From IMG/VR virus record IMGVR_UViG_3300032321_001382: DNA of 64,000 nucleotides; one strand, written 5' to 3'. The notes under the pieces are model-generated. The model saw nothing but the letters and a program-made list of their open reading frames with translations. It had not been told where the DNA came from and made no database searches. The position numbers and the translations under genes were made by a program. Every line of letters begins with the position of its first letter. The first letter of the stretch is position 1. Source of the stretch: a virus (Duplodnaviria; Heunggongvirae; Uroviricota; Caudoviricetes). Shown in pieces: positions 182 to 47,389 of this stretch.

Positions 182-994
182 ATGGGTAGAGAACCAAAAT
201 TACTTGTAGCCATTGGCAAAAAAGGAGTTGGAAAATCTTATACAACAGAAAAGATGATTCAAAGCTATGTAGTTGGCAATCCCGCTAAAGGAGTACCAGC
301 CCGTAGAGTATTGATATTGGACGTAAATGATGAATATGTTAATTACAAGGCTATAAGGATACAAGATATCACACTATTTTCTGTACATCCTATGATTGAG
401 GTTAGGAGAATTAGACCCTTTTTGGATGATGGTAAAAAAATGACTCTTGATGATATTGCGCAAACACTTTTTATTATTTTGGATACTTTTAGAAATGGCT
501 TGCTGTTAATAGAAGATGTAAATAAATATATTAGTGACTTTATGCCAAATGACTTAACTGGTGCTATTTGTACTAATAGACATATAGGAGTTGACATTAT
601 ATTGCATTATCAATCTATTGGACGTATTACATCAAAAGTTTGGCAGAATGTTAATATAATTAGATTACATAAGTTTACAGATACCGTTAAGAAACACAAA
701 CATAAGTTTGAAGATAAGTTTGAGTATCTATCTATTTGTGAGGCAATGATTAATCATAAGTACGAACAAGGAGAAAAGCACTTTTATTTATATGCAGATA
801 TAGATAACGACAAGATTTATGGTCCATTCACAGATGCTGATATGGAATTCGCTGTAAATGCATTTCTACAACAGAATTATAACAACTTAATTAACCCAAT
901 ATTGAATTCTAGAGACGATATGGGTAAGAAAATACACACACCTCAGACTGCAATCGCAGATATGAAAAAAAGGTTGATGAATTACAAAAAATAA
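182..994 (+). CDS. P-loop NTPase with deviant Walker A (GKKGVGKS); ParA/MinD- or Zot/packaging-ATPase-like
   Basis: 270-aa ORF. N-terminal VAIGKKGVGKSYTT resembles the deviant Walker A of ParA/MinD. A hydrophobic stretch followed by D (VLILDVND) could be Walker B. Confidence 0.55.
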   Translation: MGREPKLLVAIGKKGVGKSYTTEKMIQSYVVGNPAKGVPARRVLILDVNDEYVNYKAIRIQDITLFSVHPMIEVRRIRPFLDDGKKMTLDDIAQTLFIILDTFRNGLLLIEDVNKYISDFMPNDLTGAICTNRHIGVDIILHYQSIGRITSKVWQNVNIIRLHKFTDTVKKHKHKFEDKFEYLSICEAMINHKYEQGEKHFYLYADIDNDKIYGPFTDADMEFAVNAFLQQNYNNLINPILNSRDDMGKKIHTPQTAIADMKKRLMNYKK

Positions 995-1448: not shown

Positions 1449-2165
1449 ATGTCACAAGTACGTAATTACTTAAACATGGCTAAGAATCAAGCAAACGAAA
1501 ACTATATGAGTTTTGCTGGAAATCAACAAGCCCAATTCGGAAACAACATGGGTGGAATGAGAACTTCTACTCCAGTTTATGCTAACGCAACTGGCGGTAA
1601 CAACGCTCCTCAGTCTCAACCTTACATTATCACTGTATCTAACGCTTCTGCAACTGCAGTTAGCAACTTCGATGTATTAGGTGCTTACACTTACATCAAT
1701 GGTGGTACTGGTACTTATTCTAATGGTTCATTAACTATTGGTAACGTAACAATTAGCTCTGCTATTTCTAACGTAACTTACCAACAATTCTTGTACCAAT
1801 CAATGAACCAACCTTTCTCTGTAGGTTTAACTTACATCGAGTTAGTATCTGGTTCTAGCTCTCAAATTACTCAGACTTTCACCTTGAATACTCAAGATGC
1901 GAATGGTAATCAAATGTTAAGAACAATCGTTCCAACAATTGACCCTTACCAACAACAATCAACTATTGTTGCTGTTAAGCAATTGTATTCTATTGATGGT
2001 TATACTAAATTAACTTTCAATACAATCCAAGCTTCTTCTGTATTTAGAATTCACTTCTACCCAAGCACTAACATCAACTTAGCAGCTGGTTTAGGTGGTC
2101 AAGCAGTAGCTCAAAGCTATGGTAACCCTAACATCGTAGGTGTACCAACTTACATTCAAGGATAA
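1449..2165 (+). CDS. Gln/Asn/Ser/Thr-rich protein; candidate abundant virion structural protein
   Basis: 238-aa ORF preceded by a 450-bp AT-rich non-coding leader and followed directly by a strong rho-independent terminator. It is an isolated transcription unit with no TM segment and a composition typical of beta-sandwich structural proteins. Confidence 0.6.
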   Translation: MSQVRNYLNMAKNQANENYMSFAGNQQAQFGNNMGGMRTSTPVYANATGGNNAPQSQPYIITVSNASATAVSNFDVLGAYTYINGGTGTYSNGSLTIGNVTISSAISNVTYQQFLYQSMNQPFSVGLTYIELVSGSSSQITQTFTLNTQDANGNQMLRTIVPTIDPYQQQSTIVAVKQLYSIDGYTKLTFNTIQASSVFRIHFYPSTNINLAAGLGGQAVAQSYGNPNIVGVPTYIQG

Positions 2166-3055: not shown

Positions 3056-3397
3056 ATGACAAACGAATTTTTAAATCAAACTGGAACTACAGCAGCGGCA
3101 ACAACAACTTCAAAATCTCCTAATTGGTTAACTACCGCATTAGATACTGTGAAGTTTGGTGTTTCTACTTGGTCTGATGCTCAAAAAAGACAAGCAGAAG
3201 CCGATACAGCAGCTGCAGCTCTTAAGTTAGAAAACCTTAAATTAGCAGCTCTTAAACAAGAAGCTATTAATGCAGCAACAACTAGTACTAGTGTAGCTAC
3301 AAAGGTAAAATCTTATGGTATTCCTATCGCTATCACTGGCGTAGTAGTTGCTTTGGGAATTGCAACTTATTTCTACTTCAAAAAGAAAAAAGCTTAA
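3056..3397 (+). CDS. C-terminally anchored membrane protein with Ala-rich coiled segment
   Basis: 113 aa; C-terminal IAITGVVVALGIATYFYFKKKKA TM. Confidence 0.55.
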   Translation: MTNEFLNQTGTTAAATTTSKSPNWLTTALDTVKFGVSTWSDAQKRQAEADTAAAALKLENLKLAALKQEAINAATTSTSVATKVKSYGIPIAITGVVVALGIATYFYFKKKKA

Positions 3398-3398
3398 T

Positions 3399-3839
3399 AT
3401 GGCTAATGGCAAAATAGGAGTTGGTGCAACAATTGGCATAGTTGTCGCGGTTACTGCGGCGGTTGGTCTTGGTCTTTATTTTATTTTAAAGCCTAAAAAA
3501 ATTATTGCTGCAACACCAAGTACTGGTGGTTCTTCTATTAACGCTGCTCAAGTAGCCGCACTGCAAGCTCAATTAGAAAAAATGCAAGCTGATGCAATAG
3601 CAAGTCAAAATAATATTTCTAATCAACAAAAAGAACTAAACAAACAACAATTGAATAGTATTTTATTAGCTTTGGGTGGTAAAATAGCTAGTGCTGGAGT
3701 AGATAAATTGATTAATTCTTTTGGTAGTGGCAGCAAAAATAGTTACTTAGATACTAGTTTAGCAGATACGGCTCCAGATTATGTTACAGATTCTATTTGG
3801 ACTGATTCTAAATATGGTTATTTAAGTCCTTGGGGATAA
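3399..3839 (+). CDS. N-terminally anchored membrane protein (signal-anchor family)
   Basis: Track ORF 3348..3839 trimmed to the in-frame ATG at 3399, immediately after the upstream stop. Begins MANGKIGVGATIGIVVAVTAAVGLGLYFILKPKK. Confidence 0.55.
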   Translation: MANGKIGVGATIGIVVAVTAAVGLGLYFILKPKKIIAATPSTGGSSINAAQVAALQAQLEKMQADAIASQNNISNQQKELNKQQLNSILLALGGKIASAGVDKLINSFGSGSKNSYLDTSLADTAPDYVTDSIWTDSKYGYLSPWG

Positions 3840-3852
3840 AATTAAAATAATT

Positions 3853-4074
3853 ATGTACGCAAAGAAGTTCTTAAATGCTGTGAGTGAAGAGAAGTCGAAA
3901 AGTACGACCACTATCATCAATGACCTTACAAAAGGTACAATGACTGGAGCGGCAATAGGGGCTGGAATTGGAATTTATATAGGTTTTTCAAGAGATAAAA
4001 ACTTATTAATGACTGGATTTTTAGGAGCAATATTAGGAGGGGCTATATCAAGAATATTTATAGTTAAAAAATAA
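3853..4074 (+). CDS. small membrane protein (glycine-zipper TM)
   Basis: 73 aa; GAAIGAGIGIYIGF and GFLGAILGGAI hydrophobic segments. Confidence 0.5.
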   Translation: MYAKKFLNAVSEEKSKSTTTIINDLTKGTMTGAAIGAGIGIYIGFSRDKNLLMTGFLGAILGGAISRIFIVKK

Positions 4075-4080
4075 AAAAAA

Positions 4081-4284
4081 ATGGCAATACTTAGTAGTCA
4101 CAATTGTTTAACAAAAAAGTGCAATACTTGTTCTTTCTTTCAAATAGAGAGCACTAGTGTTGAATCATCAGCTAGCTCTGACACTATAGTTGCGGTTTGT
4201 AAACCAAATTATTTATTAATTGGAGGTTTAGTAGCATTAATTATAGCGTCACCAATAATTTATAAAAAATTAAAAAAATCATAA
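4081..4284 (+). CDS. small Cys-containing C-terminally anchored protein
   Basis: 67 aa; C-terminal LLIGGLVALIIASPIIYKK. Confidence 0.45.
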   Translation: MAILSSHNCLTKKCNTCSFFQIESTSVESSASSDTIVAVCKPNYLLIGGLVALIIASPIIYKKLKKS

Positions 4285-4285
4285 A

Positions 4286-4528
4286 ATGAACAAGGATACA
4301 AAAATATTATTAGGAGTTGCTGGTTTAGCACTATTAGGGTATTTTCTATGGGAAAAGTCATCAAAAGATGCAGCAAACGACACTACTAAAGCATACGCAA
4401 ATGCAAGTGGTAAGTCTGGAAGCCCTTGTTCTTTTAAGATGGATGGAGAGATTGTTAGTGGTACAAGAAGTGAATTAGACAATAAGTATTGTTTCACTAG
4501 CGATGGTAAAAGAGGTTTAGCAATTTAA
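4286..4528 (+). CDS. signal-anchor paralog family member (MNKDTKILLGVAGLALLGYFLWEK)
   Basis: N-terminal motif M-x-K-x-TK-[IM]-x-LG-(hydrophobic)-Y-[FY]-x-W-[KE]K shared with more than 10 other ORFs in the window; Cys-containing C-domain. Confidence 0.6.
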   Translation: MNKDTKILLGVAGLALLGYFLWEKSSKDAANDTTKAYANASGKSGSPCSFKMDGEIVSGTRSELDNKYCFTSDGKRGLAI

Positions 4529-4537
4529 AAAAAATAT

Positions 4538-4873
4538 ATGAACAAAAAAACAAAAATGGTATTAGGAGTTGCAGCAATAGGTGCTGTTGCTTATTATTTC
4601 TGGAAGAAGTCTAAGACTGCAGCATTCGCTAATCAATCTGGACCAATAGGTATTTACCCAACTATTTATGGCTCTGGTGCTGCCGCAGAAAAGGCTATTA
4701 GTAGTTGTACTTGGCTTAAAAGATGTTCAAATGGAAAAGCTTACTGTTTCAATACCCAAGATGCTTATAGCAATTTCAAATGTCCAGTAGGCAATGAAGA
4801 TGTTAGATATAATCAAGCAAGCGTACTTGCACCAAAACAAAATGTACAACAAGGACGTATTTCTGGAATGTAA
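4538..4873 (+). CDS. signal-anchor paralog family member (MNKKTKMVLGVAAIGAVAYYFWKK)
   Basis: Same N-terminal family motif; 111 aa; Cys-containing ectodomain. Confidence 0.6.
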   Translation: MNKKTKMVLGVAAIGAVAYYFWKKSKTAAFANQSGPIGIYPTIYGSGAAAEKAISSCTWLKRCSNGKAYCFNTQDAYSNFKCPVGNEDVRYNQASVLAPKQNVQQGRISGM

Positions 4874-4888
4874 TTAAAAATTTAATTT

Positions 4889-4934
4889 TAAACATAAAAA
4901 CAAACAAAATGAACAAAAAAACAAAAATGTGGTT
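4889..4934 (+). repeat. duplicated leader plus start segment (copy 1); copy 2 at 5387..5435
   Basis: taaacataaaaacaaacaaaatgaacaaaaaaacaaaaatgtggtt at 4889-4934 versus taaaaacataaaaaacaaacaaaatggacaaaaaaacaaaaatgtggtt at 5387-5435, a near-identical promoter/leader/N-terminus cassette on two paralogs. Confidence 0.7.
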
Positions 4935-5070
4935 AGGCGTAGGAGTAGTAGCAGTAGCTGCTTATTATTTCTGGAACAAGAAGAAACAATCAGATTCAGC
5001 AGCAGCAGCGGTAGCTCCAAAAGCATTTGCTAATATGACTGCTGGAGTACAAGGACCAGTAACAAAATAA
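4909..5070 (+). CDS. signal-anchor paralog family member, 53 aa (not in ORF track)
   Basis: Read manually: ATG at 4909 gives MNKKTKMWLGVGVVAVAAYYFWNKKKQSDSAAAAVAPKAFANMTAGVQGPVTK, stop TAA 5068-5070. Its leader and first codons duplicate those of the 5410 gene. Confidence 0.5.
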   Translation: MNKKTKMWLGVGVVAVAAYYFWNKKKQSDSAAAAVAPKAFANMTAGVQGPVTK

Positions 5071-5097
5071 TTAATTAACAATTAAAAATTAAAAAAA

Positions 5098-5223
5098 ATG
5101 GCAGACACAACAACAACAACAACTGGATTTTTCCAATCAGCAACTGGTATTGCTATCTCTTTAGGAGTATTATTTGTATCAGTTTGGGCTATTTCTAAAG
5201 CTTGGAAATCTGGACAAAAATAA
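5098..5223 (+). CDS. 41-aa membrane peptide (MADTTTTTTGFFQSATGIAISLGVLFVSVWAISKAWKSGQK)
   Basis: Manual read; ATG 5098, TAA 5221-5223; single TM. Confidence 0.35.
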   Translation: MADTTTTTTGFFQSATGIAISLGVLFVSVWAISKAWKSGQK

Positions 5224-5226
5224 ATT

Positions 5227-5385
5227 ATGGAAGTACCTAAAGCCTTAACATCGATAGGCGCAGTAGCTGGTTTATACTATGGAGTTACCAAGAACAAAGG
5301 TTTTTGGGGGACTGCTGGTTTTACTCTTTTATTTGCAATTGGAGGAGCGGCTCTAGGTAATTTCTATGAAGCTATTAAAAAATAG
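5227..5385 (+). CDS. 52-aa membrane peptide
   Basis: Manual read; ATG 5227, TAG 5383-5385; MEVPKALTSIGAVAGLYYGV...GFTLLFAIGGAALGNFYEAIKK. Confidence 0.35.
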   Translation: MEVPKALTSIGAVAGLYYGVTKNKGFWGTAGFTLLFAIGGAALGNFYEAIKK

Positions 5386-5409
5386 TTAAAAACATAAAAA
5401 ACAAACAAA

Positions 5410-6402
5410 ATGGACAAAAAAACAAAAATGTGGTTGGGCGCTGGTATTTTAGGTGTTGGCGCTTACTTGCTTTGGAAGAGTAAAAAAGCAGCTGCAGTAT
5501 CATCAGCTCCAGCTAATTTAGTTGGTTTTGATAGTGGAAGTTTCTATGAGCCTCATACCGCTAAATATGGTGTGGGTGAAGGAGTTTTCGCTAATCAAAC
5601 TGGTGGAATGATTAATTCTAACGAAGTAGTAGGCGGACACGCTGGAGTAGACAATCAAGGAATTTTTGCTAATCAAACTGGCAAAAGAGGTTCTGTATTT
5701 GTAGGTCCTTTAGACCAAGGTACATATGGACCATTTAATGATTCTACTCGTGGAAATAGAGTATTTCCTACAGTATATGTACCTTCAGATTCTACCTCTA
5801 AGAAAATGAAATTTGTTAGCCAAGATGGTACAAGCTTCTTTGATGTACAAGGTGGTCGTCAAGGAATTTTCGCTAATCAAACTGGAGCTAGTGAAAGCTT
5901 TTACGATGTAAGAGGTGGACACGCTGGTGTACATGGTCAAGGAATCTTTGCTGATGCTACTGGTGTAGATACAAAAAACCTTGGAAAATTAACAAATAGA
6001 AAAGGATTTGCTAATCAACCTTTTAACTTTGGTGGAACAATGCCTTTTGCTGCAGAAATTGGTGATAATGAAAAATTTGCTAATGCTGGAGGAATTTTAG
6101 ACAAAGCTAAAGCAGCTTGGAAAGCTAATAAATATTTACCTCAGTGGGGTACAGAAGCTACTTCTACTAAATTTACTGGTGAAGTTGGCGATAATGAAAA
6201 ATTTAATGCTACTGGTGGAAGAACTACTCCTATTCATACCATGAATGCTGCTGGAACTGGTTCAAAATTCTTTGATGTTCAAACGGCAAAATATGGTGAT
6301 AACCAAGGAGTATTTGCTGCAGCAGAAAAGATGAACGCTAGTGGAAAGGAAGGTGGTTTAATAAACGTTCCATCTGTACGTCAGGCTTGGGTTAATAGAT
6401 AG
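5410..6402 (+). CDS. signal-anchor paralog with internal GIFANQTG and EIGDNEKF(A/N)A(T)GG repeats
   Basis: 330 aa. N-terminal MDKKTKMWLGAGILGVGAYLLWKSKK. Five or more copies of G(I/V)FANQTG (an NQT sequon) and two copies of E(I/V)GDNEKF. Confidence 0.65.
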   Translation: MDKKTKMWLGAGILGVGAYLLWKSKKAAAVSSAPANLVGFDSGSFYEPHTAKYGVGEGVFANQTGGMINSNEVVGGHAGVDNQGIFANQTGKRGSVFVGPLDQGTYGPFNDSTRGNRVFPTVYVPSDSTSKKMKFVSQDGTSFFDVQGGRQGIFANQTGASESFYDVRGGHAGVHGQGIFADATGVDTKNLGKLTNRKGFANQPFNFGGTMPFAAEIGDNEKFANAGGILDKAKAAWKANKYLPQWGTEATSTKFTGEVGDNEKFNATGGRTTPIHTMNAAGTGSKFFDVQTAKYGDNQGVFAAAEKMNASGKEGGLINVPSVRQAWVNR

Positions 6403-6476
6403 TATTTTTTAAAATTAATTAGAAATAAGTTACTAGGGTTTACCAATCTTAGTAACCTATATTTCTATATCCATAT

Positions 6477-6668
6477 ATGAAAAAGAAAAACATTTTATTA
6501 GTAGGGGTATTGGCTTTAGGGTCATACCTTTTTTGGCGTTATAGCAAAACCAAGAAAAACTTCTCTGGTTTCCCAAAATCTACGTATAAAGAGGAGCCAG
6601 TTCAAGATATTTTATATAAATTTGGGATGCCTGAATTTGGCAAACCAGAATATATAATAAAAAATTAA
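6477..6668 (+). CDS. signal-anchor paralog family member (MKKKNILLVGVLALGSYLFWRYSKTKK)
   Basis: 63 aa with the family N-terminal motif. Confidence 0.5.
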   Translation: MKKKNILLVGVLALGSYLFWRYSKTKKNFSGFPKSTYKEEPVQDILYKFGMPEFGKPEYIIKN

Positions 6669-6672
6669 AAAA

Positions 6673-7008
6673 ATGGAAAAATCTGCAAACAAAAGATGGA
6701 AGGAAAGTGGTTCAACTTTGACCTTTAAAGAGTGGATTGACAGAGAAAATAAAAAAAATGAGCCTTTTGAGGGGGATTTTATCCCATTTAAACAAGAGGA
6801 AATCGCTATGGTTAATGCTGTTGGAAGCGACTCAATAAGTCAAACTATTGAAGCTGCAAAACAAGATTTGATTGATGCAAGTGGTTATAAATCAGCATCT
6901 AGCAAATCAAATGTATTAGGATTAAACAAAGGGGTTTTAGTATTCTCGACTTTATTAATAGTCGGTTCATTATCATATTACTTCTATCAAAAATATAAAA
7001 AGAAATAA
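6673..7008 (+). CDS. C-terminally anchored protein
   Basis: 111 aa; C-terminal VLVFSTLLIVGSLSYYFYQKYKKK. Confidence 0.5.
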   Translation: MEKSANKRWKESGSTLTFKEWIDRENKKNEPFEGDFIPFKQEEIAMVNAVGSDSISQTIEAAKQDLIDASGYKSASSKSNVLGLNKGVLVFSTLLIVGSLSYYFYQKYKKK

Positions 7009-7292
7009 TGTTAGAAAAAAAGCATATATTTTTATTGGGCGTTGTTGCTATTGGCGTATTAATATATATTAATTCCAATAAAAAATTAGAAATGGTTATG
7101 GTTGAAGTTGAAGAACCATCTAAAACAGCAGAAAAAAAATCTTTTGATAGCGCTACTTTACCACTTACATTAATGCCACCAACTAGACTTGGAGATGGCG
7201 AGCAGCTACCAAATAATAATATTAAAAAGAACTTCTCTTCAATACTTAATTTAAAACCAAGATTGGATAAATTATCTAATAATTTCTTATGA
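7008..7292 (+). CDS. N-terminally anchored small protein
   Basis: 94 aa; HIFLLGVVAIGVLIYINS TM. Start overlaps the upstream stop (TAATG). Confidence 0.45.
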   Translation: MLEKKHIFLLGVVAIGVLIYINSNKKLEMVMVEVEEPSKTAEKKSFDSATLPLTLMPPTRLGDGEQLPNNNIKKNFSSILNLKPRLDKLSNNFL

Positions 7293-8071
7293 TAGTAAAA
7301 GTACCTACCAGATACGAGGAGTTAACTTTAATTATAAAGGTACTTACTCACGAACCAGCTAAGATTAGAATTAAGGTTATTGATGACGCTCAAGTTGATA
7401 CATCATTTACTGATAGATTTAAGACCGTAGATGGCGAAAGCATATTCTACGTAAGGATGCCAGTAAGTCCTCAAAATGCTTTAGTATATATATACAATGA
7501 AGATAATGGTAACTTAATGCAAGATGAAGATGACACATTTGAGGTAGAATCTATAACAAAAGGAGCTTTAGAGAAGAAATTAGATGTAATTGACTTCTCA
7601 AATACTGATGTAAGAAGCTTTGTAAACTTCGCTACTAGATTTTCTTATAATGCTGGTACTTTACCAAGCGGTACTTACGTAAGTGATGATAGAAAATTTG
7701 TAATTAAATATTTGCCACTTATTGAAGATAATGGAAAAGAGCAATCAACTCCAGCTAGAATAGATATTACTAATGGAAATATTGAAATATCTAAAAAACA
7801 ATTTGTAAAATTTACCGTTCCTAATAGAATGGCAATTTTATTGCATGAGTTTTCTCACGTATATCTAAATGATAATGTAGATGATGAAGTAGAAGCTGAT
7901 TTAAATTCATTATTAATATATTTAGGTTTAGGTTATCCAAGAATAGATGCTTTTGAGGTGTTTGCTAAAACATTTATGAACGCACCTAGTAAGCAAAATA
8001 AAGATAGATACGATAAAATAAAAGGCTTTATAGATAATTTCGAAAACCATAATACATACTTGTACGACTAA
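7289..8071 (+). CDS. putative zinc metallopeptidase (HExxH)
   Basis: 260 aa; AILLHEFSHVYLNDNVDDEVE contains HEFSH plus downstream acidic residues (zincin-like). Lies directly upstream of the lytic transglycosylase. Confidence 0.5.
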   Translation: MIVKVPTRYEELTLIIKVLTHEPAKIRIKVIDDAQVDTSFTDRFKTVDGESIFYVRMPVSPQNALVYIYNEDNGNLMQDEDDTFEVESITKGALEKKLDVIDFSNTDVRSFVNFATRFSYNAGTLPSGTYVSDDRKFVIKYLPLIEDNGKEQSTPARIDITNGNIEISKKQFVKFTVPNRMAILLHEFSHVYLNDNVDDEVEADLNSLLIYLGLGYPRIDAFEVFAKTFMNAPSKQNKDRYDKIKGFIDNFENHNTYLYD

Positions 8072-8073
8072 TA

Positions 8074-8784
8074 ATGGCATATACTAAACTTACCATAAGA
8101 ATACCAGAGGTCAATAAGACCTATGCAAACTATTCTACTCCTAGTGGTAAGCAATCTAATGTGCAACTTGTCAAAAAAATAGACAACAATTATGGTAGTA
8201 TAATAGAAAAGTGGGGGAAAGTATTTGATATACCAAAAGGTGTTTTAATTGCATTTATAGCAACAGAAAGTGGTGGTCGTCAAGGATTATATAATTTTTG
8301 TTGTTATGGACTCATGCAAGTATCTCCAGATATTGTATGGGAATATCCATTAAGATGGTCTGGTACAGTATCTACTCCACTACCGCAAGAGGTAAAAAAT
8401 ATATTAAATAGTAAAGCATCTGGTATATTAACGGCTAAAAATTTCAGCTCTACTTTAGATAATAAAATTAAAAAAGCATTATTAGATGATGCTAGTTTTA
8501 ATATTATGTGTGGGACTATGTGTTTGAGATGGCTAATAGAGAGGTTTTCAAACTTTTTAACTGGAGGTCAGCTTAATAAAGCAATTATAGGATATAATTC
8601 AGGTGCATATTCTACTCATATAAATACATTTGTTGCGGGAATCAGAACTCCTAATAAGATACCAAAAGATACTACAACATTTGTAAATAATAGCAGTATA
8701 CCTCGTGAAACAAAAAATTATTTAATTAAAATGTTGGGGGTAGATGGATATATGAGTTTAATTTATAAAGATAAAGTTATATAG
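8074..8784 (+). CDS. lytic transglycosylase (SLT domain)
   Basis: 236 aa; FIATESGGRQ...YGLMQVSPD...IIGYNSGAY matches the SLT family ES / GLMQ / YNxG motif series. Confidence 0.7.
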   Translation: MAYTKLTIRIPEVNKTYANYSTPSGKQSNVQLVKKIDNNYGSIIEKWGKVFDIPKGVLIAFIATESGGRQGLYNFCCYGLMQVSPDIVWEYPLRWSGTVSTPLPQEVKNILNSKASGILTAKNFSSTLDNKIKKALLDDASFNIMCGTMCLRWLIERFSNFLTGGQLNKAIIGYNSGAYSTHINTFVAGIRTPNKIPKDTTTFVNNSSIPRETKNYLIKMLGVDGYMSLIYKDKVI

Positions 8785-8786
8785 CA

Positions 8787-9044
8787 ATGAATAAAAAAAT
8801 TATAATTATAACTTCGTCTGTATTAGGAGCAGCTATATTGGGATTTTTTGCATATAGACTATATTCTAGGTGGAATAAAGAAGTAATAAGCGATGGCAAC
8901 ACTACTATTTTGGTTTCAAAAAATGAACCTAGTAATGTTGAAGTAGTTGATTCTTCTGGAGAAGCTATTGGAGATGTTAAAGAAACAACATATCCAGAAG
9001 ACTTACAACAATTTGAAATTCAAAGCGGAATGGGAGACTATTAA
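8787..9044 (+). CDS. N-terminally anchored small protein
   Basis: 85 aa; IIIITSSVLGAAILGFFAYRLY TM. Confidence 0.45.
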   Translation: MNKKIIIITSSVLGAAILGFFAYRLYSRWNKEVISDGNTTILVSKNEPSNVEVVDSSGEAIGDVKETTYPEDLQQFEIQSGMGDY

Positions 9045-9056
9045 AATATATATATT

Positions 9057-9581
9057 ATGAAAGGAGATACAATTAAATATTACAATGGCTTACCACAATG
9101 GGCAAGAGGAATCGTTGTCGTTGGTGGATTAGTTATTGGATACATAGCAGTAAATGCTGTTATTAAAAAAATAACACAAAACAAAAAAGATGCATCTGCT
9201 CTACAAGAAATAAGTACAGCTAGTGGAGACTTAAACTCTGTTATTGCTAGTGGTACAAATCCTACTTTGAATAATTCTCAACTAGAGGCTATGTCAAGTG
9301 CTATAATTGAGGCATCTAATGGTTGTGGAACGGATAATAATATGATTTTTGCAACATTTTCAAAGATTAAAAACGATGCTGATATATTATCTTTTATTAA
9401 AGTTTTTGGATTAAGAAAAAAGACTAGATGTCCTTTTACTTCTGATACTATGGAAAGCTTTTGGTCTAATTATACTACTCCAATGTCTTTATCGGCTATG
9501 GTTAATAGTGAGTTAGACACAACTGAAATTCAAAAAATTAATGATGGATTTTTAGCAAAAGGAATGAAATATCAATTTTAA
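9057..9581 (+). CDS. N-terminally anchored protein
   Basis: 174 aa; WARGIVVVGGLVIGYIAVNAVI TM. Confidence 0.5.
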   Translation: MKGDTIKYYNGLPQWARGIVVVGGLVIGYIAVNAVIKKITQNKKDASALQEISTASGDLNSVIASGTNPTLNNSQLEAMSSAIIEASNGCGTDNNMIFATFSKIKNDADILSFIKVFGLRKKTRCPFTSDTMESFWSNYTTPMSLSAMVNSELDTTEIQKINDGFLAKGMKYQF

Positions 9582-9591
9582 AAAAAATATT

Positions 9592-9894
9592 ATGGTAAAT
9601 TTTATTGATGAAGAAGGCTATGTGATTCCAGAACCTCCAATTCCAGAAGAAATGCATCCTTATGACCCTATAGATGATAGTTGGTTAAAAAGAATGACAG
9701 ATTCTGGTGTAGTTCGTCCTGATGATTTAATTACACCTACTCCTATGGCAGTATCTTCAGCGGTTGAAACACCTCCTCAAGTAGAAACTATCTTAGGAAA
9801 TGGGTTAACAAATTCTCAGAAATGGTCTTGGGTAATAGGTCTTACTTTTGCGGCTTGGGCTTTATTATATTGGTCTCAAAAAAAATCAAATTAA
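9592..9894 (+). CDS. C-terminally anchored acidic/Pro-rich protein
   Basis: 100 aa; C-terminal WSWVIGLTFAAWALLYWSQKK. Confidence 0.5.
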   Translation: MVNFIDEEGYVIPEPPIPEEMHPYDPIDDSWLKRMTDSGVVRPDDLITPTPMAVSSAVETPPQVETILGNGLTNSQKWSWVIGLTFAAWALLYWSQKKSN

Positions 9895-10349
9895 TGTCAA
9901 AAAGTACAACTTTAATAGTAGCGGCTATAGGTTTGGGTGGATTAGGCTATTTCCTTTATAAAAAAGGGTTATTTTCTAACAAATCGGCAACTTCAGTAGT
10001 GACAGATACTAAAGTAACACCAAATCCCGCCCCAAATCCAACTATAAAAAACCCTATAACTTGCCCTAGTGGTTCTAAGTTGCAGTTGGTGGACATTAAT
10101 TGTAATGGTGCTGATTGTGAGGTGCATTGTGTGGCAATACCAGCCCCTCCAGAGAGAAAAATAATGCCAATAGACCCAATAGTAAATATGTACCCAATAG
10201 ACCCTATTGAGGTTGTAATAGACCCTTATGTTGGTAAGCCATCTTTACAGAATCAAGTTCCAGTAACTACATACACAAACGACCCATTTATTAATAATAA
10301 CAATAATTGGTCAGTGAATAAGAATCTTAATCAATTATTATATTTATAA
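9894..10349 (+). CDS. signal-anchor paralog family member (MSKSTTLIVAAIGLGGLGYFLYKKG) with PIDP repeats
   Basis: Track ORF 9822..10349 trimmed to the ATG at 9894, which overlaps the upstream stop as TAATG. Cys-containing ectodomain with PIDPI repeats. Confidence 0.55.
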   Translation: MSKSTTLIVAAIGLGGLGYFLYKKGLFSNKSATSVVTDTKVTPNPAPNPTIKNPITCPSGSKLQLVDINCNGADCEVHCVAIPAPPERKIMPIDPIVNMYPIDPIEVVIDPYVGKPSLQNQVPVTTYTNDPFINNNNNWSVNKNLNQLLYL

Positions 10350-10358
10350 AATAAAAAA

Positions 10359-10715
10359 ATGGAAAAAAATACAAAAATAATACTAGCAATTGCAGTAGGC
10401 GGATTGGGATATTATCTTTATAAAAAAGGATTTTTCTCAAAAAAAACAGCTAATACATCAGTGGTGACAACACCAGAAGCCGTTTCAGAACCAACATATC
10501 CAATGGGTATTGGAAAAGATGGCTCTAAATTCCCATTATCTGAAGGAGATTATGTTGCTAATGGACAAGAAACTGCTATTTTATATGGTGGCGAATTAAG
10601 ACCTATAACAGCGGCGTATGCAGCAAAATATGCGGGTGGAACTTGGGAAAGAACTAAGATTTTAGATAATATTGTATATAGTAGTATACCTCGTGGAGCG
10701 GTATTAGACGCATAA
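10359..10715 (+). CDS. signal-anchor paralog family member (MEKNTKIILAIAVGGLGYYLYKKG)
   Basis: 118 aa; the leader and N-terminus (LYKKGFFSKKTA) are near-duplicates of the upstream paralog. Confidence 0.55.
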   Translation: MEKNTKIILAIAVGGLGYYLYKKGFFSKKTANTSVVTTPEAVSEPTYPMGIGKDGSKFPLSEGDYVANGQETAILYGGELRPITAAYAAKYAGGTWERTKILDNIVYSSIPRGAVLDA

Positions 10716-10725: not shown

Positions 10726-11226
10726 ATGAAAAAAGGTCTGACAGCATTGGCAATAGTTGGAGGTATATCCTTATTTGGATATGCTATTTATAGGTATTTT
10801 GTAAAACAAGTTGATTTATTAAAAGAATTCAGCTGGAAAGTCATTGATTTTAGTTTCGATGTGGCAGATTTGCAAGTTATAAAAGGGGTTATTAAATTTA
10901 GATTTGCAAGTATTGCTGACCTAGAACTAACAATTAGCAAATTTTACTTGGATGTTTATATAAATGGTGATAGAGTTGGTTATATTGAGGATGTAAGTAC
11001 ATTTATCATACCAGCACAAGGATATAACGATATACCATTTTCATATACTATTAATCCTCAATATGTTATAAAGAATATAGTAGATATTTTAGCTTACTCA
11101 ACTAAGTTAAAAGATGCTATTATAACCTTTGATGGATATGCTCAAGTAAAGAGTGGATTTATTAGTGCAACAATTCCAATAAAAAGTAATTGTTCTGTAA
11201 AAAATATGGAGTGTACAATGGCTTAA
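10726..11226 (+). CDS. N-terminally anchored protein
   Basis: 166 aa; LTALAIVGGISLFGYAIYRYF TM. Confidence 0.5.
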   Translation: MKKGLTALAIVGGISLFGYAIYRYFVKQVDLLKEFSWKVIDFSFDVADLQVIKGVIKFRFASIADLELTISKFYLDVYINGDRVGYIEDVSTFIIPAQGYNDIPFSYTINPQYVIKNIVDILAYSTKLKDAIITFDGYAQVKSGFISATIPIKSNCSVKNMECTMA

Positions 11227-12006: not shown

Positions 12007-15000
12007 ATGGCATTAACTAATTTTGGATTTACTAGTGGTGGTTGTGGAATAGATTGTGTAGGGTTAACCTCTGTGGGTTTAACTACACCAAGTGCATTTT
12101 GTGTACCCAATTCTCCATTGACAGCAAACGGCAATTTGAATTTATGTGGTGCTGGTTCTGCAACTCAATATATTAGAGGAGATGGTACCTTAGCCGATTT
12201 TCCAAATATTGGTGGGGGTGGTGGAGAGGTATTCTTTTTTAATGGCAATACTTCTCAAGGTTCTATTGGTGGAAATACATATTATCAATTAGGTACTACT
12301 GCTGGTACTGGCGCTGCTGCTAATTTTTCAGTTACTGGAGATGCGGTTTTAGCTAGATTTATCACAAATGCGAATGTTCCAAATCAAATTTTAATGCCAG
12401 CGGGTAACTGGTTCTTTTCTGCATATTTCTCAGTAACAAGTAGTGCAAGCAACCCAATTGTAACAGCTACTATTCAAAAATATAATGGTGCTACATTTAC
12501 AACATTAGCAACATCTACATCGGAAGTCATTACTAATGGAACTGGTATTGAAATATATAATTTTGCAGCTTCTATTGCTGATAGTGCTCTATTAGCTACA
12601 GATAGAATAGCAATTACATTTACTACTTCTAGTACTAGTGGTAGTACAATGACATTGTATACTGAAAATTCTCATATAAGTCAAGTTGTAAGTACTTTCC
12701 CAACAGGAATATCTACTTTAAATGGATTGACTTGCAATTCTCAAAATTTTTGTACAACTACTTGTGGTACAGATTTTACAATATGTTCTAGTGGGTCAAC
12801 TCATTGTTGGAATATTCCAAATGCCTCTTGTACATCAAGAGGTTTATTAAGTTGTACCGACTATGCTTCGTTTGCATCAAAACCAATCGTTGTTGGTTCT
12901 GGATGCAATTCTACATTAAGATGTGGTGTTAATAATTTAGCTTGTGGTATTGCTAGTGCCTCTTTAGGTGGATGCAATAATACTGCTAGTGGAAATTATT
13001 CATTTGTAGGTGGTGGTTTTTGTGTTAATGCGGTTGCATTAAATTCAACAATAGGAGGGGGTAGTACAATTTTAGCTAGTGGATGTGGTTCAGCAATTCT
13101 AGGTGGTAAAAGTAATACGGCTAGTGGAAATTACTCAGCTATTTTAGGTGGTCAATGTAATACAGCATCAGCTGCATTTAGTGGTGCATTTGGTTGCAAC
13201 TTAACTGCTTGTAATGCTTGTACTTTTTATACAAATAATTTATGTGCTTGTGGTAGCTTATATACTTCTGCAGTAACTAGTGGTTGTGCAGCTTGTGTTT
13301 CTACTAATGGTCAAATTATTGGGTATACTCCAACGGTTGCAACCCCAGCTATTATAGTTGTAGGGGCTGGAGCTAATTCTACAATTAGGTGTGGTGTTAA
13401 TAATACTGCTGCTGGAATTGCTGCCGCTGCTTTAGGTGGATGTAATAATTCAGCTGTTGGGGCTAATACATTTGTAGGTGGCGGTAATTGTAATATTGCT
13501 TGTAACGCTTGTAGTATTGTTGTTGGTGGTCTATCTAACATATCTTGTGCCGCTTATTCATTCATAGGTGGTGGTAATCTTAATTGCACTGACACTGGGG
13601 TTGCCGCAGTTGTTGTTGGTGGTACGAGTAATTCAGCCCCTAGTGCTTGTACATTTATAGGTGGAGGTCAAGGCAATTCAACTCAAGGTATATATTCATC
13701 TATAACTGGCGGTTATCTTAACACAACTAATGGCGCTTGTTCAAATGTAGGTGGTGGATTTAATAACATAGCTAGATGTGCGCTTTCAAGCGTATTAGGT
13801 GGAACTGGTAACACAGCTTGTGCAAACTGTTCAGTTGTATTAGGTGGTTCTAATAACGCAACACGAGAAACTGGAGCATTTTCTGCCGTATTAGGTGGAA
13901 GTGGTAATCAGGCTTGTTGCAATTATACTGCCGTATTTGGATGCAATATGTGTAATACACAGCCTTGTACTTTTATGGCTAACAACTTTGTTGTTGGCGA
14001 CTTTGTTGGTTGTGGTGGGTGTTCTTTAGCCTTAGATGCTAATGGAAAAATATGCCTTGGTGCGGCTGCATCTCCTTCAATTATAGTTGCTGGTGCTGGA
14101 GCTAATTCAACAATAAGATGTGGTGTTAATAATACTGCTGCTGGCATTGCTGGTGCTGCATTAGGTGGATGTAATAATTCAGCTATTGGGGTAAATGGAT
14201 TTGTAGGTGGCGGTAATTGTAATATTTCTTGTGGTGCTTGTTCTTCAGTATTAGGTGGATTTACTAATAAAGCTTGTGGGGCTTTTTCAAGTGTAGGTGG
14301 TGGTAGAAGTAACACATCAACTGGATGTGATTCATCAATAGGTGGTGGTGCTAGTAACACAGCTAGTGCTTATAGGTCAACAATAGGTGGTGGTGGTTCT
14401 AATACAATCAATAGTGGTACTGCAACAACAATTGGTGGTGGTAGAAGTAATACTATTACAACTGGATTTGGTGATTCAACAATTGCGGGTGGTAGAAGTA
14501 ATACAATCTCTTCTACATACGGCTCAACAATAGGTGGAGGTTGTTCTAATGTAATAAGTGGTAGTAGTTCAGTAATAAGTGGAGGTTATGGTGGTAATAC
14601 CGCTTCTACATATACAGTGATTGGTGGTGGTCTTTATAATTGTATAGGCGGTACTGGAGCTTGGGGTGCTGTACTTAGTGGTGTGAATAATTGTATGTGT
14701 GCTGGTAATGTATTTTCAGTAATTGGTGGTGGTAATGCACATATTATTTGTAATAGTGTTTGTGGTGGAGCGATATTTGGTGGTAAAGCAAATACGGCAT
14801 CGTGTAATTATTCTTCTATATTAGGAGGTTTAACTAATAGAACTGATGGAGTTTACTCTGCTGTATTAGGTGGTTGTAACAATACGGCATCTTGTAATTA
14901 TACTGGTGTATTTGGTTGTAATTTATGCAATACGCAAGCGTGTACATTTATGTCTAACAACTTTGTTGTAGGCGACTTTGTAGGCTGTGGTGGTTGTTCA

Positions 15001-18000
15001 CTTGCCTTAGATGCTAATGGTAAAATGTGTATTGGAGCAGCTGCTTCTTCTATTATAGTTGTAGGTGCTGGAACTAATTCTACGGTTAGATGTGGTGTTA
15101 GTAATTCAACTTGTGGTACTGCTAGTGCGGCACTAGGTGGGTGTAATAATTCTGCTTCAGCAAATTATGGATTTATAGGTGGGGGTAATTGTAATAGTGC
15201 AGCTGGAACATTTTCTGCCGTAGTTGGTGGGTGTAATAATTGTGCAGCTAGTAATAGAGATTTCGTTGGTGGTGGTAGTGGTAACACAGCATCAGGAACT
15301 TATAGTTTTGTTGGTGGTGGGTGTAATAATTCAGTTAGTGTCTGTGGAAGTAATTCCGTTATAGTTGGTGGACAAAACAATAGTGCAACTGGTGGTAGAG
15401 GATTTGTTGGCGGTGGTTTATGTAACACTTCATCAGGAAATTGTTCTTTTGTAGGTGGTGGATTTACTAATATAGCTTGTGGAGTTTTTTCATTCGTAGG
15501 TGGGGGTTGTAATAACACAGCTTATGGAAGTAGGTCAACAATAGTTGGTGGATGTTGTAACATAATTTGCGGTTTTAATTCATTTATAGGTGGCGGTGCT
15601 TTAAACACTACAATAGATTCTACTTCAACAATTGTGGGGGGTTCAAATAATTTACTTGCTTGTGCTATTTCATTTATAGGTGGAGGTAATTGTAATGTAA
15701 GTTGTCAATTTCAATCAGTTATAGTTGGTGGTACTCAAAACATAATTGGTAGTAATTTCAATCATTGTCATTCATTTATAGGTGGAGGTAATTTTAATTT
15801 AGTTTGTGGCACAGCTTCTAGTGTAGTTGGTGGTTGCTGCAATAGTGCTTGTAATACTCATTCTGCCGTATTAGGTGGGTGTGGTAATAATGCATCTTGT
15901 AATTACACTGGTGTATTTGGTTGTAATATGTGTAACACACAGCCTTGTACTTTTATGTCTAACAACTTTGTTGTAGGCGACTTTGTAGGATGTGGTGGGT
16001 GTTCTTTAGCTTTAGATGCTAATGGTAAAATGTGTATTGGAGCTGGTGGTGGTGGTGGAATTATAGTTTTAGGTGCTGGATGCAATTCTACTTTAAGATG
16101 TGGTGTCAATAATGCCACTAGTGGTGCATATAGTGGTGCTCTTGCTGGTACTTGTAATGTAGTTTCTGGAGCTTGTTCATTTATAGGAGGAGGAAAAATA
16201 AACACAAGTAGTAATTCATATTCTTCAGTTTTAGGTGGTTTATGTAATTGTGCTGGAGGATTTGGAAGTTCAACTGTCAGTGGTTATAAAAATTGCTCTA
16301 CTGGTAGATATGCTACTATTTTAGGAGGTAATCAAAATACTAACTCTTCATATTATTCATCAATAGCTGGTGGACAACAAAACTTAATATCAAATAGTTA
16401 TAATTCAAATACTGGTGCGGGGTACTATAATCGAATTATTGATTCAAACTTTAGTGTTGTTGCGGGAGGTTATATAAATCAAATTTTTTCATCAATCCAA
16501 AGTGGTATTTTAGGTGGTGGTAGAAATAGAATATGTTGTGGTTGTGTAAACTCTACGATTAGTGGGTATTATGGCTGTCTAAATAATAGTAGTTTTGGAC
16601 AAATTGGCTCTGGTTCTTACAATTGTCAACAATGTGCTTGTAGAAGTACAATTTTAAATGGATGCTATAATAAAATAGGTGGTACTGGTGGTTGTTGCAC
16701 TTTAAATTCCTTAATTGGTGGTGGTGCTTGTAATATTATTTGTTATAGTGATGGTGGTTGTTTTTCTCCAACTTGTAATACTTCTTATGGCGCTATTTTA
16801 AATGGTTGTAATAATAACACTTTTGGTAATTACTCACTAATAGGTAATGGTCTTTGTAATATAGTAAATACTTCATCTTCTTTAACAAATTATGCTGTAT
16901 TAAATCAATGTGTTACTAGTTTTTGCGTTAGTGGTGATTATACTACTCAGTTTTGTGCTGGAAAATGTATAATATTAACTGGTGGTACTGGTGGTTGTAA
17001 TTCATTTGTATGCAATACATCTTCTACATTCTATTTAAGTGGTGATGAGACTTCAACATATATACCTTCTGTTAGACCAGTAATTTTCTATAGTACAATT
17101 AATCCAACTTTTAACTTGTATTGTACTACTGGTTTTAGTAATGATATTTGTGTTTTTGGAGATGTTACTTGTGACTTAACTCAATGGCAAAGATGTGTTT
17201 TATTTTGTAATACAATAACTGGATGTAATTGTGGTAGTTTAGCAATTAATGGTGTAGCTTCTGGATATGGAGGAAATACTTGTTATGTTGGTCCTTATAC
17301 TGAAATTTATGTACCAGCTGGAGTTGATTCTTCATTATATGATACAGTAACATTATGTCAATATATATCTGGTAGTGGATGTGTAACTGCCTCAAGTTTT
17401 GATGGAACAAATACAGCTATAACTGCATCAAACTTTTATGCTGGTGTAAATACTTGTTATAATTGTGTAAATTATTTACCATTTAATACTTGTGTTCCAG
17501 TATCAAGTTCATCTTTTGATTGCGTAAATACTTGTGTTACAATATCTGGTTATTTGTATTGTACTGGTATTTATTCCAATGCAAGCATTTGTTCAGTAAC
17601 TGCTAGTAATTATTCTAGTGTAATAAATGGACAATGTAATATTGTAAGTGGTAACTACTCTACAGCCAATGGATTATGTAATAATGTAAGTGTAAATTAT
17701 TCAAGTGCATTTGGTTGTAATTTATGCAACACTCAGGCTTGTACTTTAATGGCTAACAACTTCGTTATTGGTGACTTTGTAGGCTGTGGTGGATGTTCTT
17801 TAGCTTTAGATGCTAATGGTAAAATGTGTATTGGAGCTGGTGGAGGCGGTGGTGGAATCATCATTGCTGGTAGTGGAACTGATTCTACATTAAGGTGTGG
17901 TGTTGGTAACACTGCAAGTGCAATTGGTAGTGCTTCTTTAGGTGGTTGTAACAACACTGCTAGTGGATGTTATTCATTTGTAGGTGGTGGACAATGTAAT

Positions 18001-26804: not shown

Positions 26805-27488
26805 ATGTTAGGATTTTTTATAAAGACGCTCTCTCATCTGTTGTTATTCTATATCATAGTAATATCAATAGCGTATGCTTTATTAATATCTAATGGTACG
26901 TTACAATCAAAATATAAGCATCTTGTTAGAGAGTTTAAATATTCTGTATTAAGTCTCTTATTATTTAGTGTAATAGCTACTATTTTATATGAAACTAAAT
27001 TATTAAATTATACTACGCTATATTATAATATTAGTGAACATGGTTGGTTTTACTATTTTGGTATAATACCTATAATATTTCTTATATATGACTTTTATTT
27101 TTATCTCACACATATCTTAATGCATCATAAAAAATTATTTAATTTCTTTCATTTAACTCATCATAAATCTAAAGAGATTTCTCCCATGTCTGCTTTATCT
27201 ATGGACCCATTAGAAGCAATTATTAATCATGGAGCTTTACTTTTATTATTTTTATTATTTCCAATACATACATCTCATGTTTATTTATGGGTAGCAGTAA
27301 CAATAACTTATACTACTTATCTTCATTTAGGAACAGAGATATTTTCAAATAAATTCTTACAAACTAAGCTTGGAAAATTAATTAATACTACTACAACTCA
27401 TTCACAACATCACCTAAAATTTAAAGGTAATTATGGTTTTTATACTTTAATTTGGGATAAATTATTTAAAACAGAAAGAAATGCCTAA
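26805..27488 (+). CDS. fatty acid hydroxylase / sterol desaturase superfamily membrane enzyme (histidine boxes)
   Basis: 227 aa with several TM segments and the His boxes HILMHHKKLF, FHLTHHKSK and THSQHHLKFKGNYG, which match the di-iron HxxHH motifs of the FA_hydroxylase family. Confidence 0.65.
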   Translation: MLGFFIKTLSHLLLFYIIVISIAYALLISNGTLQSKYKHLVREFKYSVLSLLLFSVIATILYETKLLNYTTLYYNISEHGWFYYFGIIPIIFLIYDFYFYLTHILMHHKKLFNFFHLTHHKSKEISPMSALSMDPLEAIINHGALLLLFLLFPIHTSHVYLWVAVTITYTTYLHLGTEIFSNKFLQTKLGKLINTTTTHSQHHLKFKGNYGFYTLIWDKLFKTERNA

Positions 27489-33226: not shown

Positions 33227-33231
33227 AATTG

Positions 33232-33302
33232 ATGCTTCACTAAGATTCGAACTTAGACTAAGAGAACCAAAAACTCTGGTGCTACCATTACACTATGAAG
33301 CA
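33232..33302 (-). tRNA. tRNA, anticodon UUG (Gln) by my fold; imperfect anticodon stem
   Basis: Minus-strand sequence TGCTTCA-TA-GTGT-AATGGTA-GCAC-C-AGAGT-TTTTGGT-TCTCT-TAGT-CTAAG-TTCGAAT-CTTAG-TGAAGCA-T. It has a good acceptor, D arm and T arm (TTCGAAT loop) and one T-T mismatch in the anticodon stem. Confidence 0.5.
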
Positions 33303-33308
33303 TTATTG

Positions 33309-41459: not shown

Positions 41460-41554
41460 TTAAAATTTTTTTTACTTTCGCATAAGCTAAATAAATTGCT
41501 TATTATATACAAAGATAATGAATAGTTTATTATATTTGCACATTATTTATACAT

Positions 41555-41932: not shown

Positions 41933-41964
41933 ATAATTGATTTACAATTAAATATGAAAATAAA

Positions 41965-42408: not shown

Positions 42409-42414
42409 TAATAT

Positions 42415-47355: not shown

Positions 47356-47389
47356 ACCGCAAATATATGTATATTATCTTAGGAAATAA

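Follow-up and report, generated by a model that had tools for sequence, protein, structure and literature searches.

The 64,000-nucleotide (nt) stretch of viral DNA considered here (the window; IMG/VR record IMGVR_UViG_3300032321_001382) is the last part of a metagenome contig of 120,245 nt, and the genome continues on another scaffold. The window is AT-rich (about 29-46% guanine plus cytosine, GC) and densely coded. Its plus strand carries late, structural-looking modules (0.2-32 kb, 41.5-45.8 kb, and 55-64 kb), and its minus strand (33-41.5 kb and 45.8-55 kb) carries genes for glycosyltransferases, a sulfotransferase, nucleases, a phosphoesterase, and small regulators. Our concern is with 18 genes whose products begin with a common N-terminal segment of 26 residues, here called the anchor, joined to mutually unrelated bodies. 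All lie on the plus strand (18 of 51 genes, against none of 31 on the minus strand; Fisher p = 5e-5).

Twelve of these genes had been named in the original prediction, which claimed an expanded paralogous family with one N-terminal motif on completely different ectodomains. They begin at 4286, 4538, 4909, 5410, 6477, 9894, 10359, 10726, 44209, 60029, 61651, and 63404, and all twelve starts open reading frames (ORFs) with the layout M-x-K-x-T-K, 15-16 uncharged Gly/Ala-rich residues, Y-[YFL]-[LFI]-[WY], and K-K. Six more genes, at 3399, 7008, 8787, 43398, 59013, and 59502, make up the 18. The claim of a family thus stands, as does the claim that the bodies are unlike one another, and the anchor is kept in relatives of the virus. 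The anchor starts with M-[NE]-K-[KNQ]-T-K, Lys-rich and encoded by A-rich codons. Its core is hydrophobic, short (15-16 residues), and rich in Gly and Ala, and is followed by an aromatic belt, Y-[YFL]-x-[WY], and then by a cluster of Lys. Past the anchor there is frequently a T/A/P-rich linker and a juxtamembrane motif, F-A-N-x-x-G. What comes afterwards may be a Cys-rich domain, a set of FANQTG repeats (5410-6402), Ala/Lys-rich coiled-coil-like tracts (60029 and 61651), or PVVTTP tracts (61651), the largest anchored bodies measuring 330-574 amino acids.

The first member on the map, 3399-3839, encodes a protein of 146 residues in which a variant of the anchor with a long transmembrane segment (TM), MANGKIGVGATIGIVVAVTAAVGLGLYFILKPKK, precedes a coiled-coil-like body; orthologues with the same anchor occur in the related contigs L003, L005, L007, and L020. 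The first hot-spot array opens with 4286-4528 (80 residues, MNKDTKILLGVAGLALLGYFLWEK, with YANASG and two Cys), which scores 51.7 bits with the anchor profile described below, of which it is part by construction. It continues with 4538-4873 (111 residues, MNKKTKMVLGVAAIGAVAYYFWKK, with FANQSG and a Cys-rich body), associated with the 94-nt repeat D2 and orthologous to P0249; with 4909-5070 (53 residues, MNKKTKMWLGVGVVAVAAYYFWNKKK, with FANMTAG), whose anchor is also found on the different tails of P0241 and P0243; and with 5410-6402 (330 residues, MDKKTKMWLGAGILGVGAYLLWKSKK, with about eight FANQTG-type repeats), which contains repeat families D3, D5-D7, and D11 and has orthologues (P0283-P0311) of 190-284 residues. 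Farther along are 6477-6668 (63 residues, MKKKNILLVGVLALGSYLFWRYSKTKK, 65% identical to its orthologue in L020) and two looser members, 7008-7292 (94 residues, MLEKKHIFLLGVVAIGVLIYINSNKK, with an L020 orthologue at 63%) and 8787-9044 (85 residues, MNKKIIIITSSVLGAAILGFFAYRLYSR, 12 bits with the profile).

A second group consists of three genes: 9894-10349 (151 residues, MSKSTTLIVAAIGLGGLGYFLYKKGLFSNK, with a T/P-rich stalk and six Cys), 10359-10715 (118 residues, MEKNTKIILAIAVGGLGYYLYKKGFFSKK, with TSVVTT and copy 5 of repeat D1), and 10726-11226 (166 residues, MKKGLTALAIVGGISLFGYAIYRYF, with a LEA_2 domain), the last kept in all relatives examined. The start of the gene at 9894 is the same in the public gene call for L001, and its anchor precedes different bodies in P0337, P0351, and P0373. 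The remaining members are at 43398-43853 (151 residues, a looser member with a weak match to a peptidoglycan-binding domain), 44209-44553 (114 residues, MNKILVKWVLIFGGGLLGFTLFKPKK), 59013-59417 (134 residues, MINKTNTLIGLGLIGLTYLFIKKNKK), 59502-59633 (a mini-protein of 43 residues, MKKIKVTLGLLLSGIVGYLIWKPK, called as a gene in public records), 60029-61627 (532 residues, with a Gly-rich tract and Ala/Lys-rich repeats), 61651-63375 (574 residues, MEKNTKILIGAGALALAYYLYNASK, with a PVVTTP stalk and Cys-containing repeats, its anchor shared with the different body of P0316), and 63404-63967 (187 residues, MESKTKKILITTGIIGALSFVAYKLLAK). The array runs past the end of the window, with six more anchor genes on the adjoining scaffold L013.

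The anchored proteins have company. About 12 further small genes encode proteins with a TM at the C-terminus, ending in aromatic residues and then two to four Lys (e.g., ...GIATYFYFKKKKA and ...GSLSYYFYQKYKKK). As is proper to tail-anchored proteins, the single TM lies within about 30 residues of the C-terminus, and there is no N-terminal signal. Those with this ending in or near the first array, some perhaps with two TMs, are on the plus strand at 2244-2681, 3056-3397, 3853-4074, 4081-4284, 5098-5223, 5227-5385, and 6673-7008; others are at 9592-9894, 43110-43397, 43866-44207, 44555-45841, and 59602-60018. With the 3' half of the anchor profile, the ends of 6673 and 3056 and those of their orthologues score 10-17 bits. 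The assertion that single-TM mini-proteins occur here by the dozens is accordingly sound.

The motif just past the anchor can be written more strictly as [FY]-[AGV]-N-x-[ST]-G. Following a short T/A/P-rich linker, it is found in six strict copies, where 0.8 are expected: at 4394-4411, 4625-4642, 5587-5604, 5665-5682, and 5869-5886, and also at 1578-1595, in the N-terminal arm of the capsid gene. Looser forms occur about eight times in ORF 5410-6402 and in many relatives (FANAGG, FANVAG, FVNASG). It was considered whether FANxTG might represent an N-x-S/T sequon, but many of the copies in relatives (FANAGG, FANVAG, FVNAIA) are not sequons. The motif could serve in docking or processing.

Specificity and turnover of the anchor

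Perhaps there is no specific family here but just a generic Lys-hydrophobic-Lys signal anchor, such as might be drawn from an AT-rich genome with A-rich early codons, in a host (of the Bacteroidota type) that does without Shine-Dalgarno (SD) sequences. Several observations lean this way. An SD-like motif precedes only one of 82 genes, the leaders are 56% A, and codons 2-7 of the anchor are 66% A, compared to 43% in other genes. Four looser members (7008, 8787, 43398, and 10726) get low profile scores or none. Also, when residues are shuffled solely inside the N-flank, TM, and C-flank zones, the positional order that goes beyond composition, z = 9.6 for all 18 anchors, falls to z = 3.8 once subfamilies are collapsed to 13 non-redundant anchors. 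Even so, in both sets the true alignment is well more ordered than its shuffled versions.

Composition does not, however, predict a fixed length (the uncharged stretch has 15 or 16 residues in 33 of 64 anchors), nor does it predict T5, G10, Y19, and W22. Among 21 non-identical anchors of the commonest length class, from five genomes, K3 is present in 18, T5 and K6 in 17 each, G10 in 15, Y19 in 12, W22 in 10, and K23 in 14. A loose regular expression for the motif finds 17 of the 154 ORFs in the window that start with ATG, and a strict one finds 12; shuffles of DNA in trinucleotide blocks or of protein give on average 0.7 and 0.6 loose matches (at most 3) and 0.05 and 0.04 strict ones (at most 1). 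A profile of 32 positions, built from the window sequences alone, retrieves 476 cluster representatives at E <= 1e-3 from 1.84 billion proteins. Of the best 150 matches, 147 start at residue 1, and the proteins, 32-394 residues long, continue in unrelated ways. Independent members of the family in relatives score 18-49 bits. In contrast, the small membrane proteins of PRD1, PM2, and FLiP reach at most 5 bits. As a control, 2156 ORFs were considered from 507 kb of aquatic phage DNA (37% GC; loci from a Peptidase_M15-based metagenome scan). They include 27 generic hydrophobic N-termini, often lipoprotein-like, and just one match to the profile, which lies in the one control locus that reaches a related capsid module. 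Generic composition is thus largely refuted as an explanation for the core class of anchors, and we consider it highly improbable for the family. The shared N-terminus is a specific and recognizable module peculiar to this lineage.

The profile has a practical use as well, since with 32 residues it finds hundreds of protein clusters belonging to this virus group. Searches of Pfam-A, NCBIfam, and PHROGs with 10 members per library gave no significant match to the anchor. Nor does the core, though 17% of its residues are Gly, appear to be built as a glycine zipper: small-xxx-small (GxxxG) spacing was seen 20 times where 20.5 were expected (p = 0.61), and that idea was given up. Among the representatives, P0247 (282 residues) is a curiosity, an otherwise unrelated-looking protein with three internal tandem anchor-like segments, NKTILGAGAGAAAGYGLYKYLKKKK, set within 60-residue repeats.

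How the family changes can be seen by comparing the window with L020, a contig from the same sampling project. The ATPase and capsid protein of the two viruses are 90% identical, and identity is 88% for the conserved mini-proteins encoded at 5098 and 5227. The MNKKTK genes of that hot spot, by contrast, match (81%) over residues 1-26 alone, beyond which the proteins cannot be aligned. At the level of DNA, identity is 0.8-0.9 within the anchor but 0.2-0.45 in the sequence to its left and right. The number of anchor genes and the types of body vary among all relatives examined. From these comparisons, the family appears as one of conserved anchors and variable bodies, turning over by tandem duplication and perhaps exchanging cassettes as well. 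By this account, it grows by tandem duplication at a few hot spots (at 4.3-6.4 kb, at 9.9-10.7 kb, and from 59 to 64 kb and farther on). The anchor block stays the same, and the sequence behind it diverges, or is swapped, very fast. As a side observation, genes of IS605/TnpB (Cas12f-like) transposons are inserted near the capsid module of relatives, at L003 4854-6050 and at L005 19836-20747.

Two genes were said to share a near-identical cassette, about 46 bp of leader and first codons. They do. The segment at 4890-4939 (a 19-nt A/C-rich leader and the first 31 nt of gene 4909) and that at 5390-5440 (a 20-nt leader and the first 31 nt of gene 5410) agree at 48 of the 51 aligned columns; a single 1-nt indel and two substitutions make up the rest. 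A leader of this A/C-rich kind also precedes the capsid gene. From the cassette it had been concluded that promoters and signal anchors were shuffled together onto new ectodomains. As regards anchors, this agrees with their retention (about 81% identity) in a close relative whose bodies are unalignable. As regards promoters, it does not hold up: the leader is only 19-20 nt long, and no promoter was found. No 5-mer is enriched upstream of anchor genes, 16 of the 18 follow the preceding gene by at most 35 nt (the other two by 74 and 84 nt), and a scan for sigma-70-type promoters finds fewer sites than in shuffled sequence. The Bacteroidota promoter TTTG...TAnnTTTG (-33/-7) was seen 8 times against 5.9 expected, not an enrichment, and never before an anchor gene. 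On the strength of the k-mer, gap, and promoter scans, a conserved promoter tied to the cassette was rejected. Since the leader is short, the gaps are small, and neither motif nor promoter lies upstream, the cassette is better understood as a duplicated leader plus anchor than as a mobile promoter. The A-rich MNKKTK codons may also help initiation that is independent of SD sequences.

Genome context and host

The first array stands behind two genes that bear on the kind of virus this is. ORF 182-994 (plus strand) matches Pfam DUF87/HerA and belongs with the FtsK/HerA-type (A32/B204/P9-like) genome-packaging ATPases. Its AlphaFold model (predicted local distance difference test, 76) has B204 as its best structural match. 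Comparisons with PRD1 P9, PM2 P9, and the PDB chains gave no significant sequence match; alignment is confined to the Walker A region, and for that reason sequence homology to those proteins is not claimed. The product of 1449-2165 (plus strand) is a probable major capsid protein, modeled as a jelly-roll-like beta-sandwich. It is highly conserved and has more than 2149 homologues in metagenomes, the best 120 of which are 68-93% identical. The evidence for its fold is modest: the ordered core has the size of a single jelly roll, a profile of the protein matched no PDB sequence, and a Foldseek comparison of the model with BFVD gave low template-modeling scores, with collagen/C1q-like matches. 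Directly after the gene, at 2185-2230 on the plus strand, is a strong hairpin followed by a run of U (-23.6 kcal/mol, z = -5.2), an intrinsic terminator or attenuator that probably attenuates transcription into the genes for membrane proteins.

The order of genes is ATPase, capsid, a run of small membrane proteins, a lytic transglycosylase, and fibers, as in PRD1 and PM2. The SLT transglycosylase (8074-8784, plus strand) is encoded within the membrane-protein module, a position corresponding to that of P7 in PRD1. The anchor genes lie in the late operon, behind those for ATPase and capsid and alongside that for the transglycosylase. The module also encodes, at 7289-8071, a protein of 260 residues with an HEFSH (HExxH-like) motif. 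Its length varies little or not at all among the relatives, and the version in L020 is 85% identical. Neither Pfam nor PHROG gave a match for this protein, which may be a metalloprotease. Lipids and membranes are further represented by genes for a fatty-acid hydroxylase (FA_hydroxylase, 88 bits) and an SPFH/Band 7 protein, at 26805-27488 and 51028-51549, and, just upstream of the window, by a PAP2 lipid phosphatase (L001 6255-6890).

The presence of peptidoglycan enzymes indicates a bacterial host. Canonical Bacteroidota promoters of the form TTTG...TAnnTTTG are found upstream of three minus-strand operons (47360-47394, 50862-50892, and 54990-55023), and no promoters of this type were found for the late plus-strand genes. 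A host among the Bacteroidota fits, given these minus-strand promoters and the near absence of SD-like motifs from leaders that are A-rich. Attempts to read the host from bins of metagenome-assembled genomes were abandoned, as the labels contradict one another (Ignavibacteria, Chlamydiae, Sediminibacterium, Legionellales) and the contigs are probably mis-binned.

The same ATPase and capsid candidate occur together on contigs of 120-182 kb (the window's own, L001, L003, L005, L007, L009, and L020). These look like an unrecognized lineage of bacterial viruses, very large and probably non-tailed, common in freshwater and marine metagenomes. No near relatives, and no homologues of the capsid protein, were found among GenBank phages or in IMG/VR, and no description of the group was found in a literature whose coverage was incomplete, so that a prior description is possible.

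The role of the anchor

On balance, though not firmly, we favor the view that this lineage-specific segment is a membrane anchor that is not cleaved, and that it serves as the shared address label of a family of single-pass proteins encoded in late structural operons and destined for the membrane of the virion. PRD1-type viruses have an internal virion membrane made from the inner membrane of the host. Here, the anchor would insert each protein into the host's cytoplasmic membrane, from which the virus, like PRD1 and PM2, would build its own internal membrane. The tail-anchored mini-proteins would use the mirror image of the anchor's design at their C-termini. The virion probably does contain an internal lipid membrane: a lipid-containing virion is supported because the order of genes resembles that of PRD1 and PM2 and because the virus encodes lipid enzymes. 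The insertion of the anchor into the membrane, its topology, its location in the virion, and any role in sorting are inferences.

Could the anchor instead be a signal that is cut away, leaving proteins that are secreted or assembled into a filament? It does have the positive n-region and hydrophobic core of a Sec, lipoprotein, or type IV pilin-like (class III) signal, and there are weak matches to the archaeal pilin UpsA (14.8 and 16.1 bits), though these are far under the cut-off of 130. But the residues that define such signals are absent, and all three kinds were rejected. There is no small-x-small site past the core, where the aromatic belt and two to four Lys come at once, no c-region with small residues at -3/-1, and no early mature region that is neutral or acidic. 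Nor is there a lipobox Cys, or indeed any Cys within residues 1-30 of any member, while the control loci do show lipoprotein signals. Neither the conserved prepilin residues (G at -1, F at +1, E at +5) nor the archaeal [KR]-[GA] site is present. Because cleavage site, lipobox, and prepilin residues are all wanting, the anchor is read as uncleaved, and cleavable signals have, in our estimation, hardly any chance of being the answer.

A stronger competitor keeps the anchor but changes its destination. In this case, the proteins would be effectors placed in the inner membrane of the infected cell, with their bodies in the periplasm, where they could prevent superinfection, hide receptors, reshape the envelope, or set the timing of lysis, and their hypervariability could come from an arms race. 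The bodies do vary greatly between close relatives, the T/P-rich stalks and the even Cys counts suggest domains outside the cytoplasm, and the same module holds the SLT enzyme, the weak match to a peptidoglycan-binding domain, and LEA_2. There is even a weak Rz-like spanin match for 3399 (E = 0.076). On the other hand, the genes lie in late operons between those for capsid and fibers, as do the genes for virion membrane proteins in PRD1 and PM2. By the well-established positive-inside rule, export of the C-terminal body is disfavored, since a cluster of Lys follows straight after the core. Furthermore, the giant fiber proteins are rich in Cys yet have no signal, so that Cys content is no marker of the periplasm in this virus. 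Effectors seem to us an unlikely explanation for the family, though one to be reckoned with, and with so many genes, location in the virion membrane and location in the host envelope are not exclusive.

Several considerations count against a place in the virion membrane. Hypervariable bodies, T/P-rich stalks, and Cys-rich domains look like parts of proteins that are surface-exposed or periplasmic rather than packed under a capsid. The assignment of the TM rests on hydropathy, and several of the cores are only moderately hydrophobic. Both flanks are basic (net charge +1.6 on the N-terminal side and +2.4 on the C-terminal side, the latter being the more positive in 35 of 64 anchors), and for this reason the orientation of the anchor is ambiguous. 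Selection for initiation regions rich in A may account for some of the MxKxTK part. Finally, among the roughly 60 proteins scanned (about 47 kb of contig being outside the scan), no terminase, portal, HK97 capsid, or tail-tube families were found, but genes of tailed phages could lie elsewhere, the analysis having covered only about 83 kb out of 130 kb or more of genome.

A still larger proposal may be entertained. The window might belong to an undescribed, globally widespread lineage of non-tailed viruses with genomes of 120-182 kb, probably infecting Bacteroidota, with an internal membrane and a PRD1/STIV-type morphogenesis module, missed by virus-detection resources; the anchor together with F-A-N-x-x-G would then be a virus-specific sorting signal, one that loads an expanded and rapidly diversifying proteome into the membrane. 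Taken as a whole, this is a tentative proposal, possible rather than probable. Such a lineage would have genomes about ten times as large as those of the cultivated membrane-containing phages compared here (9-15 kb). Its recognition would extend about tenfold the size range of prokaryotic viruses with this packaging machinery and would bear on how large jelly-roll and membrane virions evolved. The anchor may also speak to a standing puzzle, how internal-membrane viruses, even PRD1 and PM2, select proteins for the virion membrane: a sequence-defined anchor carried by at least 18 genes per genome is a candidate for a sorting signal.

Neighboring genes and comparison with known systems

Beyond the membrane-protein module, two ORFs encode giant repeat proteins, 12007-23748 (3913 residues) and 27481-31743 (1420 residues), both extremely rich in Cys, Gly, and Asn and both ending, as do phage fibers and endosialidases, in a Peptidase_S74 intramolecular-chaperone domain. 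The second contains a long G-T-S-G collagen-like tract. Genes for tRNA-Gln(TTG) and tRNA-Ser(TGA) lie on the minus strand at 33231-33395, between the fiber module and that for glycosylation. The latter, at 33397-42813, is an island of sugar modification with genes for an FkbM methyltransferase, GT25, a sulfotransferase, two GT9 heptosyltransferase-like proteins, GT1, a protein of 896 residues, an APS kinase, and a cytidylyltransferase. Its content suggests sulfated or glycosylated structures on the virion or on the host surface. Two further large proteins are encoded ahead of the last anchor array. The product of 55148-57772 (874 residues) has an N-terminal half that is Ala/Lys-rich and coiled-coil-like, behind which stand about 20 repeats, each of about 25 residues and containing Cys; that of 57780-59012 (410 residues) combines (DPIP)n and GSxIxxPLDKGxF repeats with a tail of poly-Gly. 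No known family was matched by either.

Small membrane proteins in the structural module of a membrane-containing phage are nothing new in kind. In PRD1 (P7, P11, P14, P16, P18, P20, P22, P32, and P34), in PM2 (P3-P8), and in FLiP, as here, a run of small genes comes after those for the packaging ATPase and the major capsid protein and before or around those for the lytic transglycosylase and spikes, and, again as here, most of the proteins are single-pass and shorter than 150 residues. PM2 P3, P8, and gp j and the FLiP proteins end in a TM and basic residues, like the tail-anchored companions described above, and PM2 P7 starts with MINKTTIK, followed by a TM. The differences are in scale and in sequence. 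Those phages have about 5-10 such genes in genomes of 9-15 kb. The window has 30 or more, and a single conserved anchor begins 18 of these. Bodies found here are in some cases far from small, at 330-574 residues. The proteins of PRD1, PM2, and FLiP share no common anchor, either among themselves or with this family (at most 5 bits).

The ATPase invites a similar comparison. Like the ATPases of the STIV2 B204 and PRD1 P9 type, the product of 182-994 is a single domain of about 200-270 residues, encoded next to the capsid gene. It has RVLxLDVNDEY after Walker A, where PM2 P9 has RVLAWDVDEDY. The genome that carries it is about ten times larger, however, and as noted, its sequence gives no significant match to P9 of either phage.

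Outside of viruses, the design of the two kinds of anchor has counterparts that are a matter of analogy. Tail-anchored proteins of the mitochondrial outer membrane have a short, moderately hydrophobic TM flanked by basic residues. The 15-16-residue Gly/Ala-rich core with Lys on both sides is of this pattern, and about 12 genes in the window use the design, as those proteins do, at the C-terminus. Hosts and insertion machineries differ, and the resemblance does not imply homology. The combination of a conserved leader and a hypervariable body is familiar from the conotoxin superfamilies, the Vlp proteins of Mycoplasma, and the surface lipoproteins of Borrelia. There too, a targeting segment at the N-terminus is sharply conserved, the sequence behind it turns over fast, and the genes stand in tandem arrays. 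Those leaders, though, are cleaved signal or lipoprotein peptides and belong to cellular organisms, whereas the present one is apparently an uncleaved anchor and belongs to a virus. No directed mechanism of diversification was found for the anchor family. What sets the present system apart from those already known is a single sequence-conserved anchor repeated in at least 18 genes within 64 kb, its block-like conservation in the face of hypervariable bodies, and the mirrored set of tail anchors that accompanies it.

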